Positions 3,763 through 13,010 of a DNA stretch of 32,000 nt are shown in pieces (position 1 is the first letter of the stretch; each line of letters starts with the position of its first letter). A model generated the notes under the pieces. That model saw only the letters and a list, made by a program, of their open reading frames with translations. It searched no databases and was not told where the DNA came from. The position numbers and the translations under genes were made by a program. The stretch is taken from positions 240,001-272,000 of the forward strand of contig NZ_CP045650.1 of NCBI RefSeq assembly GCF_009557235.1. Reading direction: 5' to 3'. This stretch comes from Acinetobacter wanghuae. Lineage in GTDB: Bacteria > Pseudomonadota > Gammaproteobacteria > Pseudomonadales > Moraxellaceae.

Positions 3763-4227
3763 TTAAGCTGCTTTTTTAAACCAAGAGAACCAGCCTTTTT
3801 TCTCAGCTTTTGCTGCAGCTTCAACAGTTGCTTCAGCAGGAGCAGCTTTTGCAGCTTCTACTTGTTCAGCAGCTTCTGTTTTTGTTTCTTCAACTTTTGC
3901 AACAGCAGCGTCTTTTACTTCTTCAGTTTTAGTTACAGTTTCAGTTTTAACTGTTTCTACTTTTGCAGCAGCATCTGCTTTCACTGCAGCAGGAGCAGCT
4001 TTTGCAGCTTCAACTTGAGCCACAACAGCAGTTTTTTCTTCAGTAACTTTAGCTACAACAGCATCAGCTTTAGCAGCAACAGGTGCAGCTGCTTGTTGAG
4101 CAGTTTGAGTTGCTACAGTTTTTACTTGTGATTTAAGTACAGTTACAGGAGTCGCTGTTTCAGCAGCCATTGCAGCAGCAGAAGATGCAACAATTGCAGT
4201 TGCTAGAAGTGTTTTTAGCATGTTCAT
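3763..4227 (-). CDS. Secreted low-complexity Ala/Lys/Glu/Val/Thr-rich repeat protein
   Basis: ORF 3763..4266. The likely start is MNMLKTLLATAIVASSAAAMA/AE (signal peptide) at 4227. The body consists of degenerate A/K/V/E/T repeats with QVEAAKAAPA occurring twice, and the C-terminus is KKGWFSWFKKAA. The F/S/C-rich + ORF 3862..4131 is its shadow. Confidence 0.6.
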   Translation of the reverse strand: MNMLKTLLATAIVASSAAAMAAETATPVTVLKSQVKTVATQTAQQAAAPVAAKADAVVAKVTEEKTAVVAQVEAAKAAPAAVKADAAAKVETVKTETVTKTEEVKDAAVAKVEETKTEAAEQVEAAKAAPAEATVEAAAKAEKKGWFSWFKKAA

Positions 4228-4365
4228 ATATAGCCCCATCAGGAGAAACAAGAGAATTGAGGGCAATATGATACGCTTATAAAAATTAACCGATTGATTT
4301 GTTAAGTTTTATTGGTTGAATAATGGGCTAAAATTACAAAGGGATAACATTCATTTATATGTAAA

Positions 4366-4401
4366 GCATTTAGCGATTCTAGAAATAAGATTTCTAAATG
4401 C
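4366..4401 (-). terminator. Inverted repeat downstream of the RT gene (weak terminator candidate)
   Basis: GCATTTAG (4366-4373) pairs with CTAAATGC (4394-4401), and there is an inner AGAAAT/ATTTCT pair. Only a short U-run follows on the minus strand. Confidence 0.3.
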
Positions 4402-4466
4402 TGTGTGAATTTAAGAATCAGTTTCGTAGTTGATTAAAAGTTTTAAATTTAAAAAAGAGAGTGTAT

Positions 4467-5822
4467 TTAGTTTTCCTTTTTCACTAGAGCATCATAAAAA
4501 TCCTGATTTAAGTCATCATATTTAAGCAATTTTCTTTTTAAATTAAGCCAATGGGGCTGAATTTGTTTTTTAATTGCTGGTTCATTCATGATTTTTGCGG
4601 CTCTTAAAGCATAACTTATGTAGTTTCTTTGTCCGATAAAGGAAAACCTTCTATAAATATACTTTTTGTGGGGGATAAGAGGGGCTAACCCTCTATTGAT
4701 CCTAGAAAGGTTAATTTTCAATATGCGCTTATTAGTCATTCGGATAGCTTTGTTAGCTTTATAAGAGTATTTAGCCAATCCAGTATCACGTAATAAAATT
4801 TTGATACCATCATAAGTAAACCCTAAATATTGGAGTTCATCTTTAGAAACACGTATTCCATTTTTAAATTCAGCTATTTTAGTTTTTTTATCTTGTATTG
4901 TTAGCTTCATTTTTGTGATTTGAGTTTGAGAGTATCTTAGCAATTGATACTGATTCGCCCTATCACAAATAATTAAAATATCATCACAATATCGATAATA
5001 CTTAGCATCAAATTTATCCGCTTCTTTCTTTAGTTTTTCATCAAATTTCATCATGTAAATATTTGATAAAAAGGCACTTAGTGCTGACCCTTGAGGAATT
5101 CCTTTTTGTAAATTGTTTTTGCAAATTATTTTATTGCTTCTAATTTTTTCTCTAAATTCTTCACTCGTGCAAAGCCGTTTAAGATCTTTATGATGACGAT
5201 TCAAAGATAGTTTTAGATTTTGATAAACTAAATTTTTTTCAACATAACTGTATTTGGTTATCGATTTAAATACGTTGTAATGATCATTTGGCAGTGCATC
5301 TATGCCTAAAACTTCTTTCCATGCCTGTTTTAATAATTCATGATCTAATTCATCAAAAAAGCTTTTTATATCTAAACAAATCACGGAACAATTTTGACGT
5401 TCTTTAACTTCATCGAAGACTTTTTTTGCAAAATTAATGTTGTTTGGAGAGTTGGGAAGTTTTCTAAATGCTAAAACGCAATCCTGAATTTGCTTTTGTA
5501 TGAGTATTTCTTCATAAAAAGGTGATAAGAGAAATGCGTAGTAAGCATAAATATGACCATCTATATGGGCTGAATATTTTATAGGTCGAATTTTGGGTTC
5601 TTGCTTTTCAACGATAATTTTTCTTGCTCCATTGATGACTTTGAATCCTTTCTTTTTAATTTTTCTAGAAATTAATTCAAAATGAATAAATGGGTAGAAC
5701 GCATGCTTATTAATATTATCTTGATTCGTAACATAGTGATAAATCTTTTCTGATGAAATAGGATAATCAAAATGTAGATATTTTTTTTGTCGATCTTTAA
5801 AAAAATTATGGTCAATACTCAT
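4467..5822 (-). CDS. Stand-alone reverse transcriptase, UG/Abi (defence-associated) type; the architecture fits DRT2/UG2 best
   Basis: ORF 4467..5837 begins at a TTG; the first ATG is at 5820-5822 (MSIDHNFF...). RT palm motifs are read directly: SVICLDIKSFFDELDH (motif A), GIPQGSALSAFLSNIYM (motif B), YYRYCDDILIIC (motif C, with YCDD encoded at 4980-4991) and LQYLGFTY (motif E). About 165 aa lie C-terminal to YCDD with no recognisable nuclease, ATPase, TIR or primase domain. The gene is K/I/N/Y-rich and visibly more AT-rich than its neighbours. Confidence 0.85.
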   Translation of the reverse strand: MSIDHNFFKDRQKKYLHFDYPISSEKIYHYVTNQDNINKHAFYPFIHFELISRKIKKKGFKVINGARKIIVEKQEPKIRPIKYSAHIDGHIYAYYAFLLSPFYEEILIQKQIQDCVLAFRKLPNSPNNINFAKKVFDEVKERQNCSVICLDIKSFFDELDHELLKQAWKEVLGIDALPNDHYNVFKSITKYSYVEKNLVYQNLKLSLNRHHKDLKRLCTSEEFREKIRSNKIICKNNLQKGIPQGSALSAFLSNIYMMKFDEKLKKEADKFDAKYYRYCDDILIICDRANQYQLLRYSQTQITKMKLTIQDKKTKIAEFKNGIRVSKDELQYLGFTYDGIKILLRDTGLAKYSYKANKAIRMTNKRILKINLSRINRGLAPLIPHKKYIYRRFSFIGQRNYISYALRAAKIMNEPAIKKQIQPHWLNLKRKLLKYDDLNQDFYDALVKKEN

Positions 5823-5831
5823 TATTAGAAA

Positions 5832-6140
5832 ACTCAAGGAAAGGCTGACGATAATCCTCGTTTAAACGCCCTATTCTAAGAACAGAGTTCCTTGAGCATA
5901 CCCAAGTACCCAAAATACGTACCCTCTAGAAGAAAGCTTCTACATCGTCTTTAGATCACGAAAGGAATATACTATGAGAAGCATTGATTACATTCTGTGG
6001 AGTACCCTATACCTTGTATTCAGTACTTGGTTCCAGGCAGTATGTAATGTATCACCTGAACTGCTAGAAATTCTTCTAACATTTCTGAGTACAATACTTG
6101 CAAACAGATTACCTTCCCTATGCCCTACAGCATAGGCTTA
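5832..6140 (-). ncRNA. Candidate RT-associated structured non-coding RNA (template/leader RNA), RT-sense
   Basis: The interval between the IS end and the RT start has stops in all three RT-sense frames. It is less AT-rich than the RT gene and contains several hand-foldable stems, which are listed in the findings. Its position directly upstream of the RT on the same strand is where DRT2 and retron ncRNAs lie. The boundaries are guesses. Confidence 0.4.
5974..6135 (+). other. SD-preceded 53-codon ORF antisense to the RT leader, lying within a 79-codon stop-free window (5896..6132); either a neo-like template frame or a small hydrophobic peptide
   Basis: AAGGAA (5962-5967) lies 6 nt before the ATG at 5974. 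Translation: MRSIDYILWSTLYLVFSTWFQAVCNVSPELLEILLTFLSTILANRLPSLCPTA*. It is below the 60-aa cut-off of the ORF track. The other two + frames have stops at 5927/5975 and 5952/5985. Confidence 0.3.
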
Positions 6141-6150
6141 ATAAATATAC

Positions 6151-6157
6151 TAAATTA
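6151..6157. repeat. Target-site duplication TAAATTA (left copy) of the IS982-family insertion
   Basis: An identical 7-mer abuts both IS termini (6151-6157 and 7132-7138). Confidence 0.7.
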
Positions 6158-7131
6158 ACCCGAATCCTGTTTAAGCCGATGACTCCATAATTTGAATTGT
6201 TGGCTTATTTTTATGGATCAGTTGATATGCACACAAGGACGCGTAAATCCCTCCTAGAAATCCATGAACACTACGTGCTTTGCTTGTCACTAAATTGTAC
6301 TGACCTTTCAACAAACTGAATAAAGTCTCTATCTTATTACGCTGTTTTAAGTGATATTTATCTGACTCAGAAAGTTGTGTAGCCTGCATATTTTTTCGAT
6401 GATAGGTAATTAAATCAATGCCTTGCTCTTTTAATCTAATCTTCAGTTCTTGACTAATATAGCCACGATCTCCATACAACTTTGCTTCCACCTCTTTAAC
6501 GAGTCTCTCAACCATTTTTATGTCAGCAACATGTCCATTCGATAAAGCAGAACAAGCAATTTCACCAAATTGGTTCATTGCAATGTGCAATTTACAGCCA
6601 TAAAACCAGCCCATTGAACTTTTACCACGAGATGCAATTTTAGCTAAAGATTTATGGCGTTGAATACGTTGATTTTTACAAACTGGCAGAGTTGTTGAAT
6701 CAATCCATAAATATTGTGTACCTTGGTCTTTCATCAGCACCACATGTAAAGCGTGTAGAGCCAATTGGTGCATATTGATCAGATGAATCATCCTTTGATA
6801 GCAAGGCAAATACTTAAATAAATGGTTTTTATCTTCTTTTAACCAAATGAAAAATGCTTTGAAATTATTGAAATGAGAACATTTGTACCAAATAGCGATA
6901 AAACAGATTTCTGAAATGGTTAAATGAGCAGTTCTGATTCTTAAGGAACGATTACTTTGCTTAAGAAAATTCCAGTAGGTTGCTTCAAATTTAAGAAAGA
7001 AATCATCAATTAAGCAAAATAATTCGGTACTATTAAACATCGGGACTAGAGTTTTAAGTTTTGTGTGGTAACTCAACTGATGGCTCTAGTCCTTCTATTT
7101 TTCAAGTTAATTTCTTATCCGCGATTCGGGT
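6158..7131 (-). mobile_element. IS982-family insertion sequence (974 bp)
   Basis: Terminal inverted repeats are ACCCGAATCCTGTTTAAGCC (6158->) versus the reverse complement of the right end, ACCCGAATCGCGGATAAGAA (<-7131). The first 9 positions match fully and about 14 of the first 19 overall. There is a single DDE transposase ORF, and the element is flanked by a perfect 7-bp direct repeat. Confidence 0.85.
6171..7040 (-). CDS. IS982-family DDE transposase
   Basis: ORF 6171..7076 starts at a TTG; the probable start is the ATG at 7040 (MFNSTELFCLIDDFFLKFE...). The segments ...WIDSTTLPVCKNQRIQRHK...GKSSMGWFYGCKLH...YGDRGYIS...KQRNKIETLFSLLK... match my memory of Acinetobacter IS982-family transposases (ISAba4/ISAba825-like). 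Confidence 0.85.
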   Translation of the reverse strand: MFNSTELFCLIDDFFLKFEATYWNFLKQSNRSLRIRTAHLTISEICFIAIWYKCSHFNNFKAFFIWLKEDKNHLFKYLPCYQRMIHLINMHQLALHALHVVLMKDQGTQYLWIDSTTLPVCKNQRIQRHKSLAKIASRGKSSMGWFYGCKLHIAMNQFGEIACSALSNGHVADIKMVERLVKEVEAKLYGDRGYISQELKIRLKEQGIDLITYHRKNMQATQLSESDKYHLKQRNKIETLFSLLKGQYNLVTSKARSVHGFLGGIYASLCAYQLIHKNKPTIQIMESSA

Positions 7132-7138
7132 TAAATTA
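7132..7138. repeat. Target-site duplication TAAATTA (right copy)
   Basis: See 6151..6157. Confidence 0.7.
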
Positions 7139-7205
7139 AGATTTAAACCACAAACAATTGTTTTATAAAATAAACTCCACATTAAGCGGAATTCTTTTTG
7201 TAGAA

Positions 7206-7221
7206 GTATTTAAGAATTAAA
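7206..7221. repeat. 16-bp direct repeat GTATTTAAGAATTAAA (copy 1)
   Basis: Identical to 8070..8085, which overlaps the fadA stop codon. A partial copy, GAATTTAAGAATCA, lies at 4407-4420. Confidence 0.6.
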
Positions 7222-7294
7222 TACAGTTCAATTACTGTCTCACTCTTATAATTCTACTGAATATTCTTTAAGCAAGCCATAAGAACGCAAATAT

Positions 7295-7993
7295 TTAAGG
7301 CTGATAAACAATACCTAAACCTTGAAATGGTAAAGCAATTACATCGACTGCAAGTGCAATTGGGAATAATGCAATTTTTTCCGCTAAAGGTGTGTCAGGC
7401 AAACGCTTTTTCACTTTCTCAGTTTGGTAAACACTGACTTTATAAGCCTTACTGAGCGGCTGTAGGCGCTTAATATTATTGGCGACAGGATAGATCAATC
7501 CTGAAAGTTTAAGTTCAAAGGAATTTGCCGATGATTTTGAGCCTGTACCACATGCACACGGTGCGACCCCATAGCTTTTAAAAAGTACTTGTTCCTGAGC
7601 ACTTAAACCAGAGGGTGGGGCATAGTCGAAACGAATCGTGCCTGAGAATTGATTATTTATCCCATAAGGGTGGTAAAAGCTTAAATCATGGTGAAAGCGA
7701 ATATATTTGGGGTCAAGCTGACTAAACAAAGACTGAAATGCCATTGCACCTTCGGTGATGACATAACTATATTTTTCACCTGCCACAACAACAGCATCAC
7801 TGGGTAGATCTGAAGAAGGCTGTGCAAGTTTCCCAAAAGCAACAACATTGTCTTCAATGAGCGTAACTCGTTCATAATCGTAACGATATTGCGGAGATAC
7901 TAAATCGCTGACATTGCCTCCAACTTTGGAGTTAGGCGAACACCCTGTTAAGCATAATAATGACAAACAAAGAAAAATAGTTTTTTTATACAT
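7295..7993 (-). CDS. Hypothetical lipoprotein
   Basis: 232 aa. The N-terminus MYKKTIFLCLSLLCLTGCSP carries a lipobox (L-T-G-C). I recognise no family. Confidence 0.65.
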   Translation of the reverse strand: MYKKTIFLCLSLLCLTGCSPNSKVGGNVSDLVSPQYRYDYERVTLIEDNVVAFGKLAQPSSDLPSDAVVVAGEKYSYVITEGAMAFQSLFSQLDPKYIRFHHDLSFYHPYGINNQFSGTIRFDYAPPSGLSAQEQVLFKSYGVAPCACGTGSKSSANSFELKLSGLIYPVANNIKRLQPLSKAYKVSVYQTEKVKKRLPDTPLAEKIALFPIALAVDVIALPFQGLGIVYQP

Positions 7994-8069: not shown

Positions 8070-9253
<1,184 letters not shown>

Positions 9254-9265
9254 TCACGTTGCTCC

Positions 9266-11419
9266 TTAACCGTAGAATTTTTTGTTGTTAGCAGCCATGT
9301 CACGCAACAATTGTGGCGCTTCATAAGCTTTACCTAAATGTGCATATTTGTCGCAAAGCGCAACGTATTCAGCAACACCTGTTTGGTCGATGTAACGTGC
9401 AGGACCACCACGGAATGGAGGGAAACCTACACCCATGATCATCGCCATATCTGCTTCAGATGGCGTTGCCACGATGTTGTCTTCTAGGCAACGAACCGTT
9501 TCATTACAGAATGCCAGCATCATACGGTCAATGATTTCTTGCGCATCAAATTCACGTTTTTCGCCTGTCACAACAGATGAAATTAACTCATACGCAGTTA
9601 GATCGACTTTCTTGGCTTTTTTGCCTTTCTTGTCCAATTCGTATTTGTAGAAACCAACGTCATTCTTTTGACCAAGACGTTTGTTTTCATACATGGTTTG
9701 AATTGAACCTTTGAAGTCCGGTTTCATACGGTCAGGGAAACCTTCCGCCATGACTTCTGCACCATGAACGCCAGTATCAATACCGACAACGTCCATCAAG
9801 TAAGCAGGACCCATTGGCCAGCCGAAGCGTTCCATCACTTTATCGATTTGCTGGAAGTCAGCACCATCTTTAAGCAATAAATCGAACGCACCGAAGTAAG
9901 GGAATAACACACGGTTTACAAGGAAGCCCGGGCAGTCGTTCACCACGATTGGGGTTTTACCCATTTTTTGCGCAAGCACAACAGTCGTCGCGATTGCCTC
10001 AGCAGATGTCTTCTCACCACGGATCACTTCCACCAAAGGCATCATGTGAACAGGGTTAAAGAAGTGCATACCCACGAAGTTTTCAGGACGCTCTAGGTTT
10101 TCAGCCAAACGCGTGATTGAAATCGTAGAGGTGTTAGACGCAATGATCGTGTTTTCACGTACTTTAGATTCAGTCTCTTTCAGTACAATGCCTTTCACTT
10201 TTGGATTTTCAGTCACTGCTTCAATGACAATGTCGACTTCTTTGAATTCGTCATAGCTTAACGTTGGACGGATGCGCGCCAGTGTTTCACCCATTTTTGC
10301 AGGGGTCATTTTTTTACGTTCAACTTGTTTGGTCAGTAAGCCATTGGCTTCTTTCATACCCAAAGCAAGTTGCGCATTACCAATATCTTTCATGATGATT
10401 GGTGTGCCTTTGCTTGCCGCTTGGTAAGCAATACCACCACCCATGATGCCCGCGCCTAGAACAGCCGCTTGCTCAACAGGGTGTGCACCTTTTTCATAAC
10501 GCTTTGAGGTTTTTTTCACAATTTGATCGTTGATGAATAGACCAATCAACGCGCCAGCTTGTGGAGTTACCGCAGCTTTGGCGAAACCTTGTGCTTCAAC
10601 TTTCAATGCTTCATTACGTGGAAGGCTTGCACCTGCTTGCAATGAGTCTAGAAGTAATTTTGGCGCAGGGTATTGAGCAGGATTGGCTTTCGCAAGCACC
10701 ACACCTTTAGATGAGTTAAACGCCATCATTTGTTCGATTGGGCTTAACTTCACAGGGTCTAATTTTTCTTGGCGTTTTGCTTTCCAATCTAAACGACCCG
10801 CGATTGCTTGTTTCACCAAGTCAATTGCAGCGTCTTGAAGTTTGTCCGCAGCAACCACAGCATCTACAGCACCGTCTTTCAGTGCAGCAGCAGGCTTTTT
10901 AGGATTTGCCATTGCCATCCATTCAACCGCGTTATCAATACCGATCACACGACTTAAACGAACTGTACCACCGAAGCCCGGGAAGATACCCAGTTTGATT
11001 TCAGGCAGACCAACAGCAGCCGCTTCTGACATCACACGATAGTCACACACGAGGCACATTTCAAAACCGCCACCCAATGCTTGACCATTGATTGCAGCAA
11101 CTTTAGGGATGTCTAAATCTTCAAACGCATTGAAGATATCGTGAACAGGCAATGCCCAATCTACAATCGCTTGTTCGCCTTGTGCGAAGTTCGCGCCGAA
11201 TTCTGTAATGTCTGCACCCACGATAAACGTAGATTTGCCAGAGGTGACGATTAAACCTTTAATGTCAGCGTTGTTTTTGACCGCATCAATTGCAGCTTTA
11301 AAGTCTTCAATTGTTGCACGGTTAAATTTGTTGACCGACTCACCTTGTAAGTCAAAGCGGAATTCTGCAATTCCGTCCGAAAGCATTTGGACGGTAATGG
11401 CATTGCCAGCGTGGATCAT
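9266..11419 (-). CDS. fadB: Fatty-acid oxidation complex alpha subunit (enoyl-CoA hydratase / 3-hydroxyacyl-CoA dehydrogenase)
   Basis: 717 aa. N-terminal crotonase fold ([10 protein letters not shown]), NAD-binding [12 protein letters not shown], and a 3HCDH C-terminal region. AAGGAG SD. Confidence 0.95.
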
Positions 11420-11939: not shown

Positions 11940-13010
11940 ATGAATCCTACTGATCAATCATTAATGCAACAAATGCAGATCTCGATTATTGATATTGAAT
12001 ATCGTAAACAGCTTCTCGGACTTACAGCGCCAGAGCTGCAAGAACTAGCGCGCGTACGGTATTTGATTGAAGCGGATTTAGATCAAATGATTGAGGCGTT
12101 CTACAGTTTTCAAACCAGTATTCCTGAAATTAATAGCATTATTGGTGATGCCGATACGTTAAGACGTCTTAAAATGGCGCAACATCAATATATTTTGGAC
12201 TTATTTTCAGGCTGTTATGACAGCAATTATATTAATAACCGTCTGCGCATTGGTTTGGTACATAAGCGCATTGGGGTAGAGCCGCGCTTTTATTTGGCAG
12301 CCTTACATCATTTGAAAATACGCTTATTTGACCATATTCGCACATGTTTAGATGATCAGGCATGGGCAGATGCCATTTTGGTGAGTCTAGAAAAGCTATT
12401 TATCTTTGATATGACATTGGTGTTTGAAACCTATGTCTGGAGTTTGATTAATGAAGTGAATCACTCCAAACAAAAACTACAAGCCTATGCCAGTGCATTA
12501 GGGGTGCATGCACAGGAAATGGAAACCTTGTCACGGATTGATCCATTGACAGGTCTACTTAATGTGCGTGATTTGATCCCACTTTTAAACGAACTCATTT
12601 ATCGTGCCGAACAGAAAGGTGAACCCTTAACCTTGGTTTTTATTGATATTAACGACTTTAAAAAAATGAATGATGAATATGGGCATCTGTTCGGTGATCA
12701 AGTCATTCAGGCCGTGGCAACAGCATTAAAACAGTTTGCGCGCGATGAAGACTATTGCTTCCGTTATGGGGGTGATGAGTTTTTATTGGTTTTGCCTAAC
12801 TGTACTGAACACAGTGCTGAGCATAGTTTAATTCCACGGATTTTAGAGCAGCTTCATCTGACGCATCAACAGGTGAGTTTAAGTATAGGTATTCATCAAG
12901 TGGATGCCAAATCAGGTTATATGGACAGCTCGAGTCTGATTCGAGCAGCAGATAGTAAAATGTATGCAGTCAAAAAAAGCCTGAAAATGCAACAAACTGA
13001 ACAACATTAA
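11940..13010 (+). CDS. Globin-coupled sensor diguanylate cyclase (GGDEF)
   Basis: The N-terminal roughly 160 aa resemble sensor globins (…RLRIGLVHKRIGVEPRFYLAAL…, the proximal-His motif). The C-terminal GGDEF domain has an intact RYGGDEF and an RDED I-site 5 residues upstream. Confidence 0.8.
   Translation: MNPTDQSLMQQMQISIIDIEYRKQLLGLTAPELQELARVRYLIEADLDQMIEAFYSFQTSIPEINSIIGDADTLRRLKMAQHQYILDLFSGCYDSNYINNRLRIGLVHKRIGVEPRFYLAALHHLKIRLFDHIRTCLDDQAWADAILVSLEKLFIFDMTLVFETYVWSLINEVNHSKQKLQAYASALGVHAQEMETLSRIDPLTGLLNVRDLIPLLNELIYRAEQKGEPLTLVFIDINDFKKMNDEYGHLFGDQVIQAVATALKQFARDEDYCFRYGGDEFLLVLPNCTEHSAEHSLIPRILEQLHLTHQQVSLSIGIHQVDAKSGYMDSSSLIRAADSKMYAVKKSLKMQQTEQH

Follow-up and report, generated by a model that had tools for sequence, protein, structure and literature searches.

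A DRT2 reverse transcriptase module with a predicted neo-type template and an insertion-split promoter in Acinetobacter wanghuae

The window analyzed here is a stretch of 32,000 nucleotides (nt) of Acinetobacter wanghuae DNA (contig NZ_CP045650.1, positions 240,001 to 272,000) that carries, on its minus strand, a gene for a reverse transcriptase (RT) of the DRT2 family, a leader that is predicted to be the associated non-coding RNA (ncRNA), and an insertion sequence (IS) of the IS982 family directly upstream of the leader. The positions of these features are collected in Table 1. When the alternative TTG start is used, the open reading frame (ORF) of the RT spans 4467-5837 (-). All four palm motifs are present in the protein (LDIKSFFD, IPQGSALS, YRYCDD and LQYLGF) and YRYCDD is invariant across the RT protein alignment. 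RVT_1 is the sole Pfam domain, and no fused effector, maturase or endonuclease domain was found by Pfam. The guanine-plus-cytosine content is 0.27-0.31 over 4250-5750 vs 0.40-0.47 in the flanks. A sequence-only reading made earlier had described an RT of roughly 451 aa with intact palm motifs, free of fused or maturase/endonuclease domains and lying in an AT-rich insert, and these results agree with it on each of these counts.

Table 1. Features of the DRT2 module and of the insertion upstream of it, in window coordinates
Feature	Position	Strand	Remarks
drt2 RT gene	4467..5822	-	451 aa from the ATG common to the relatives; YRYCDD active site; no extra domain
Predicted DRT2 ncRNA, ~317 nt	5823..6139	-	5' end inferred from the position of the -10, 3' end from the final conserved motif
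3' scaffold of the ncRNA	5823..5952	-	pseudoknot plus four hairpins
Scaffold pseudoknot	GACGAUG 5949-5943 pairs with UAUCGUC 5853-5847	-	crosses CUCAAGGAA 5896-5888 / UUCCUUGAG 5841-5833
Scaffold hairpins	5942-5927, 5924-5904, 5887-5869, 5868-5859	-
Second ATCT direct repeat	5953..5956	-	just 3' of the template; predicted template-jump landing site; counterpart of ACA-2
Predicted rolling-circle RT template, 153 nt	5957..6109	-	starts ATCT; antisense is one 51-codon Neo unit (MRSIDYILWSTLYLVFSTWFQAVCNVSPELLEILLTFLSTILANRSRKEYT)
Predicted neo ribosome-binding site AAAGGA and start codon ATG	5961-5966; 5974-5976	+	7 nt between; kept in 8/8 sequences
Junction promoter -10 (TATACT)	5968..5973	+	positions 12-17 of the antisense unit
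Junction promoter -35 (TTGCAA)	6098..6103	+	same position as in Klebsiella-type units (PMC12039810)
5' handle hairpin CCUAUGCU / GGCAUAGG	6117..6136	-	8 pairs, 3 with both-side changes, 96% paired
Retained -10 (TATATT) of the shared ncRNA/RT promoter	6144..6149	-
Target duplication TAATTTA, 7 bp	6151-6157 and 7132-7138		perfect
IS982-family element, 974 bp	6158..7131	-	terminal repeats start ACCCGAATC; one copy in the window
Candidate IS-borne -35 (TAAACA)	6168..6173	-	18 nt from the retained -10; 9/12 consensus matches, pattern only
IS982 transposase ORF	6171-7076	-	NCBIfam NF033520, 252 bits (cutoff 130)
Orphaned -35 (TTGTGG)	7148..7153	-	998 nt upstream of its -10 (spacer 7147..6150, not 17 nt)

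The RT matches the NCBIfam Drt2 equivalog model NF041746 with 517.9 bits (cutoff 390) over profile positions 3-415 of 416, and the PADLOC Drt2 models with 8.7e-150 (498 bits) and 2.7e-148, the next best PADLOC UG group being at 4e-26. Additionally, residues 7-434 align to residues 8-425 of the solved Klebsiella Drt2 (PDB 9c0i and related entries) with E = 2.6e-105. A 100% identical protein in A. wanghuae is labelled 'hypothetical protein GFH30_01130', and several relatives at 55-68% identity are already called 'antiviral reverse transcriptase Drt2' by NCBI. Judged by these profile and structure matches, the RT at 4467-5822 is a genuine and ordinary member of the DRT2 (UG2) family, which is known, experimentally characterized and routinely annotated. 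The earlier proposal, made from the architecture alone, of a DRT2-like single-gene RT with an upstream RNA is thereby supported, and its alternative of a related, uncharacterised UG/Abi system is dropped because the RT passes an already annotated Drt2 family model. Relatives were collected by scanning one genome per species, which gave 229 loci encoding RT relatives, and the best 80 of the 229 were retained. Seven of these 80 form the Acinetobacter set (L001-L007, among them A. terrae and Acinetobacter sp. ANC 4204), in which the RT is 54-68% identical to that of the window. The closest RT relatives outside the Acinetobacter clade, among the best 80 of the 229 loci, have only ~40-45% protein identity.

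The leader is free of same-strand ORFs over 5823-6157, and this interval folds with -90.8 kcal/mol (z = -2.9), a value that one of 100 shuffles equalled. A 53-codon ORF is present on the opposite strand at 5974-6135 (+) and is the genomic footprint of the Neo frame discussed below. The description of the leader as an ORF-free, stem-rich interval holds for the strand of the RT and for the fold. The 300-320 nt upstream of Drt2 in the seven other Acinetobacter species align with the window leader, the identity of the ncRNA to that of the window being 57-89% by segment. When the 81 loci were searched by nhmmer with a profile of the Acinetobacter ncRNA, matches of 236-327 bits were obtained and these were confined to the Acinetobacter clade. 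A named structure consisting of a 5' hairpin, a 5-bp template-closing stem, four 3' hairpins and a pseudoknot was then tested on the alignment. It has 52 pairs, and 91.6% of the cells are paired compared with 40-52% when the partners are slid by 1-3 columns. Compensatory (both-side) changes occur at 15 pairs and are found in each main helix of the 3' scaffold, and none of 500 shuffles reached the observed values. By this alignment the leader is a conserved structured RNA with a pseudoknotted scaffold that is supported by covariation. The Rfam 15 scans of the leader gave no DRT2 ncRNA match at either the gathering or the E-value threshold, and the lone match at the E-value threshold, to a mammalian long non-coding RNA model with 18 bits against a threshold of 70, is due to chance. 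No spacer separates the start codon of the RT (5822) from the conserved ncRNA motif that comes last, UUUUCUAAUA, and a clear Shine-Dalgarno sequence is lacking (5820-5835), so that the 3' end of the RNA and the translation start of the RT overlap.

A study by Wilkinson et al. (2024, PMC12039810) determined that the template of the Klebsiella DRT2 RNA is 120 nt long and lies between two ACA trinucleotides. In the antisense unit TATAAT is found 12 nt from the 5' end and TTGACA 12 nt from the 3' end, which gives a promoter with a 17-bp spacer only across the junction of two units, and the unit has a ribosome-binding site (RBS) and a start codon, a length divisible by three and no stop codon. The same arrangement is predicted for the window leader. 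When two units are joined the junction reads TTGCAA-ACAGAT|CACGAAAGGAA-TATACT and is followed by ATG. The 17-nt spacing between the -35 and the -10 arises only on joining, as in the genome the two hexamers are 91+ nt apart and in reversed order. The template length is a multiple of three in 8/8 sequences (153 nt in the window; 147, 147, 150 in four loci, and 141 nt in the relatives), and in each of the eight the circular unit has exactly one stop-free frame. The antisense strand of the window contains a stop-free run of 237 nt, to which homologous runs correspond in 7/7 relatives. Alignment gaps within the template are of 3 or 6 nt only, compared with gaps of 1, 2, 4, 6 and 16 nt in the scaffold. 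The coding constraint on the unit is evident from this comparison. The template is bracketed by ATCT/ATCT in the window and L002-L006, by ATCG/ATCT in L001 and by ATT/ATT in L007, where both repeat copies have changed together from ATC to ATT. The junction -35 is TTGACA in L002-L006, TTGCAA in the window and L007, and TTGCTA in L001, and the junction -10 of the relatives is TATACT, TATAGT or TATAAT. These are the sequence hallmarks established by experiment for DRT2 (PMC12039810), and their retention in seven relatives supports the assignment of the leader to the DRT2 ncRNA type.

The predicted Neo unit is hydrophobic (grand average of hydropathy 0.46-1.03), like the canonical units, and its frame relative to the -35 and -10 matches that of the canonical units, with LDN read from the -35 and Y-T/N from the -10. 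The ATG at 5974 is the sole in-frame ATG, GTG or TTG of the window unit. Because the AAAGG of the predicted RBS complements the CCUUU arm of the basal stem as well, its conservation has two possible causes, a role as RBS or pairing in the basal stem. Among 2000 dinucleotide shuffles of the leader, 27 contained a repeat-flanked, stop-free unit divisible by three whose promoter was as good under the fixed geometry. When the same scan for neo features was applied to canonical loci, TTGACA-17-TATAAT, ACA repeats and units of 105-132 nt were recovered in most of them, which validates the approach. A strict scan of the leader for a template of the ACA...ACA type gave no match, and ACA is thus not the repeat here. 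Two other boundary models were rejected. A 168-nt template with TTAGAT as the -10 has a 15-nt spacer, and the homologous boundaries give in-frame stops in L002 (TAG) and L004-L006 (TAA); a 162-nt TGT...TGT template leaves a spacer of only 9 nt.

Two groups of other loci stood apart in these scans. In L030, L034, L063 and L072 (Moraxella and Psychrobacter) a permissive scan predicted units of 138-150 nt with TGT repeats and the -35 at the end of the unit, which would be a third junction arrangement within the DRT2 family. In L039, L059, L068 and L078 the covariance model R1, described below, detects a canonical 3' scaffold upstream of the RT (53-67 bits), and the neo scan gave no repeat-flanked stop-free unit; either the thresholds are too strict or these loci differ.

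The window module and KpnDRT2 (PDB 9c0i/9c0j) share a bare RT of ~425-451 aa with YCDD that aligns end to end, and an ncRNA upstream on the same strand with its elements in the same order. This order is a 5' hairpin, a short template-closing stem, a template starting 6 nt before the complement of the -35, the complement of the -10 located 11 nt before the template end, the second repeat copy, a pseudoknot strand, two hairpins, a long stem enclosing the other pseudoknot strand, and a U-rich 3' end. In both, the -10 occupies positions 12-17 of the unit, the -35 begins 12 nt before its end, the spacer is 17 nt, and the unit is stop-free and divisible by three. The two differ in the repeat, which is ATC(T) in the window and ACA in Klebsiella, and in the length of the unit, which is 153 nt (51 codons) in the window and 120 nt in Klebsiella; in our sample the Klebsiella-type loci have units of 105-132 nt and the Moraxellaceae loci units of 138-153 nt. 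They also differ in the placement of the translation signals: in the window the predicted RBS falls within the spacer of the promoter and the ATG follows the -10 without a gap, whereas the RBS and ATG of Klebsiella are ~13 nt or more downstream, at about position 42 of the canonical units. The long 3' stem of the window holds extra hairpins, and its promoter is interrupted by the IS. No RNA sequence similarity to the Klebsiella type was detected by nhmmer over the 81 loci or by a covariance model. This model, R1, was built from 43 canonical DRT2 3' scaffolds and gives 44-67 bits on other canonical loci; its best local match in the window, 5812-5954, covers the full model at the expected place with 1.8 bits (E = 0.75). 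As this score is not significant, the case for homology between this RNA and the Klebsiella type is built on the collinearity of their elements, compared one by one by eye.

The Acinetobacter loci L001-L007 share with the window the RT clade, the ncRNA, the template boundaries, the promoter, the Neo frame and the fadBA neighbourhood. They differ in having an intact TTGTGA-17 nt-TATATT promoter and no IS, and units of 141-150 nt, five of them with a perfect TTGACA. A study by Tang et al. (2024, doi 10.1101/2024.05.08.593200) lists in its Table S1 the A. baumannii and A. pittii DRT2 proteins SPC68994.1 and AUM27447.1, which resemble the window in a long unit of ~153 nt with non-ACA ends and for which the table calls Neo identified. 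Going by these table entries, long units in Acinetobacter are not new. The listed proteins, of ~467 aa, carry an insertion, differ at the N-terminus and belong to another RT subclade; as in the Klebsiella type, their RBS (GGAGG) and ATG are placed downstream of the -10. The clade of the window was not found among the rows of Table S1 that are listed, which is uninformative either way. The other class 2 UG/DRT systems DRT9, DRT10 and DRT3 likewise pair an RT with a structured ncRNA next to it, from which repetitive or homopolymeric DNA is templated; they differ in using protein priming or a second RT, and they create no gene. Their RT models score far lower on the window RT, with 53 bits for Drt9 and 77 bits for Drt3a in PADLOC against 498 bits for Drt2, and 71 bits for the NCBIfam Drt3a model (cutoff 200).

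The element upstream of the leader shows the traits of the IS982 family: a length of ~1 kb, a single DDE transposase, terminal inverted repeats starting with AC and a short target duplication. Its size of 974 bp, AC ends and 7-bp repeats agree with the published description of this family (PMC7335449). Elements 86-88% identical to it are found on 42 records of a plasmid collection, all from Acinetobacter. In the relatives the module promoter, TTGTGA-17 nt-TATATT, is found just after a terminator and ~7 nt before the first conserved base of the RNA. When the IS and one copy of the duplication were removed in silico, TTGTGG-17 nt-TATATT was restored, and because this reconstructed empty site matches the promoter of the relatives, the IS sits inside the promoter spacer. 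The right limit of 6157 that the sequence-only reading had set for the leader is the exact edge of this insertion; the IS, its splitting of the promoter and the opposite-strand ORF had gone unseen there. An IS-free allele was sought by exact protein look-up, and the sole other contig with an identical RT, from the draft assembly GCA_009601085.1, ends inside the IS.

As the IS separates the -35 from the -10, the present-day expression of the module is uncertain. The TAAACA hexamer of the IS and the retained -10 form a possible candidate hybrid promoter, by pattern a weak one, and promoter-like sites in the region as a whole are no more frequent than in shuffles. The transposase gene is oriented in the direction of the ncRNA and stops 13 nt short of the IS edge, and read-through from it into the module is possible. 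Two effects are known of IS982-family elements in Acinetobacter, gene inactivation and activation through hybrid promoters (PMC7335449).

We consider it very probable that the locus is a DRT2 system with a predicted neo-type template, the RT of which would copy the leader RNA into a concatemeric repeat gene. A single transcript would carry the ncRNA and the RT, and the RT would bind the 5' hairpin and the pseudoknotted 3' scaffold and copy the 153-nt template from 6109 to 5957. The ATCT repeat would let the RT jump back from the template's 5' end to the 3' end, giving concatemeric cDNA. By analogy with Klebsiella DRT2, phage infection would turn this cDNA double-stranded, and each repeat junction would then form the sigma-70 promoter TTGCAA-17 nt-TATACT. 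The transcripts would encode an endless hydrophobic protein of 51-residue repeats (Neo) that would arrest the infected cell. For the window locus, cDNA synthesis, the phage trigger and the toxicity of Neo are inferred from the likeness to the Klebsiella system. The IS982-family element later entered the promoter spacer, and expression would now proceed through the weak hybrid promoter or transposase read-through, or would have been lost.

Several observations weigh against this interpretation. The junction -35 of the window (TTGCAA) matches the consensus at only 4/6 positions, and the flanking repeat is ATCT and not the conserved ACA. Model R1 gave no significant score on the window or on any Moraxellaceae locus. 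A junction transcript, which would start ~7 nt past the -10, would probably reach an RBS and ATG for the first time in the repeat that follows. The shared promoter is split by the IS and Klebsiella has a single start site, from which it follows that the module may be silent. Finally, the module is known here as a sequence, and every step of the mechanism is a prediction.

The last but one of these points leads to an account in which the locus is a recently silenced DRT2 system: the IS982 element took the -35 from the sole promoter, the ncRNA and RT are below useful levels, and the sequences have merely not decayed. The insertion does lie within the 17-nt promoter spacer that is kept in all relatives, in KpnDRT2 the ncRNA and the RT are both transcribed from one start site located upstream of the ncRNA, and the IS-borne -35 is a weak candidate (TAAACA, 18-nt spacer, 9/12). 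The perfect duplication and the intact transposase ORF suggest that the event was recent. However, the -10 has been retained, hybrid promoters of IS982-family elements that raise downstream expression are documented in Acinetobacter (PMC7335449), the orientation of the transposase gene and its end 13 nt from the IS edge leave room for read-through, and the RT, scaffold and Neo frame are without lesions. Taking both sides together, silencing is quite possible, with the balance somewhat against it.

Two further explanations concern what the RT is and what it makes. A divergent DRT2 clade might have a different product, such as non-coding repeats or a homopolymer as in DRT9 and DRT10, and the antisense frame would then be incidental. 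The absence of ACA motifs and the score of the canonical scaffold model on the window, which is below significance, would fit this, and a passage of Tang et al. (doi 10.1101/2024.05.08.593200) reports greater difficulty in annotating Neo in divergent DRT2 clades and raises alternative mechanisms as a possibility. Set against this are the stop-free frame, the lengths divisible by three, the indels in multiples of three, the junction promoter and the start codon, all kept in 8/8 sequences, and a frame that stands to the -35 and -10 as in the canonical units (LDN; Y-T/N). In PADLOC, moreover, the RT reaches 53 bits with Drt9 against 498 bits with Drt2. We therefore regard a different product as very unlikely. 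It is more improbable still, to the point of being negligible, that the RT is of the retron, group II intron, diversity-generating retroelement (DGR) or CRISPR-associated type and not a DRT. Weak similarity in the palm gives it 92.3 bits with the group II intron model TIGR04416, 55.9 bits with the best retron model (St85) and 76 bits with the CRISPR-associated RT model. These scores are far below that of Drt2, and the first two are also far under their curated cutoffs (300 and 235 bits, respectively). There is no maturase or endonuclease domain, no intron, retron or other relevant RNA family was matched in the Rfam scans, and the neighbouring ORFs that were listed and scanned include neither cas genes nor genes for DGR accessory proteins.

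The known picture of DRT2 is unchanged by this locus, which is of interest for the way in which its clade varies the neo signals and for the promoter that is split by the IS. With the Acinetobacter clade the neo logic is seen to hold in a second set of sequences, independent of the first: the unit length is divisible by three, the frame has no stops, and the junction promoter keeps fixed distances to the ends of the unit. The jump repeat (ATC/ATT and not ACA), the unit length (141-153 nt) and the placement of the start codon differ from those of Klebsiella, and the comparison helps to separate the requirements of the mechanism from features that are specific to Klebsiella. The IS insertion amounts to a simple natural experiment on the ways in which such a system is tolerated or tuned by cells. 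It is rather doubtful that the RBS and ATG in or abutting the junction promoter, and the replacement of the -35 of the shared promoter by IS982, matter functionally. If they do, translation that starts only in the following repeat would raise the minimum number of repeats needed for toxicity, and the locus would be a natural case of an IS rewiring or switching off a self-toxic, gene-synthesizing immune system. For annotation, the 'hypothetical protein' of A. wanghuae should be renamed Drt2, and an ncRNA and a predicted neo template should be entered as features.

The RT had also been called an orphan, which does not hold, as the module adjoins fadBA in at least seven other Acinetobacter species. 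It is directly downstream of fadB-fadA in 7/7 of the Acinetobacter relatives, with fadB-fadA at about 250-3590 in L001-L007 and at 8081-11419 in the window, where one lipoprotein gene and the IS lie between fadA and the module. FadA is 87-97% identical across these species vs 54-68% for the RT, which suggests that the module either stays in place and evolves fast or has been replaced repeatedly at a single hotspot. No conserved partner gene was found beside the RT, the flanking ORFs having no Pfam match or not being next to the RT in the relatives. The other window ORFs that were scanned have housekeeping or signalling functions (uvrC, argH, pgsA, a two-component system and a secretin), and no further defence system was recognized among them.

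The lipoprotein-like ORF of the window (232 aa, 7295-7993) has ~41% identical homologues downstream of the RT in three relatives (L003, 4824-5384; L005 and L006, about 6850-7425), and this shift in position suggests that the surroundings of the module were locally rearranged. An alanine-rich ORF of 167 aa (3763-4266) with an N-terminal hydrophobic segment and no Pfam match follows the RT immediately downstream and was not found next to the RT in the relatives. Two tRNA-Phe(GAA) genes with identical Rfam scores, 1649-1724 and 1900-1975, are 250 nt apart and sit between a GNAT-like gene and the variable region. Just past fadB, at 11940-13010, lies a protoglobin-GGDEF fusion, a globin-coupled diguanylate cyclase.

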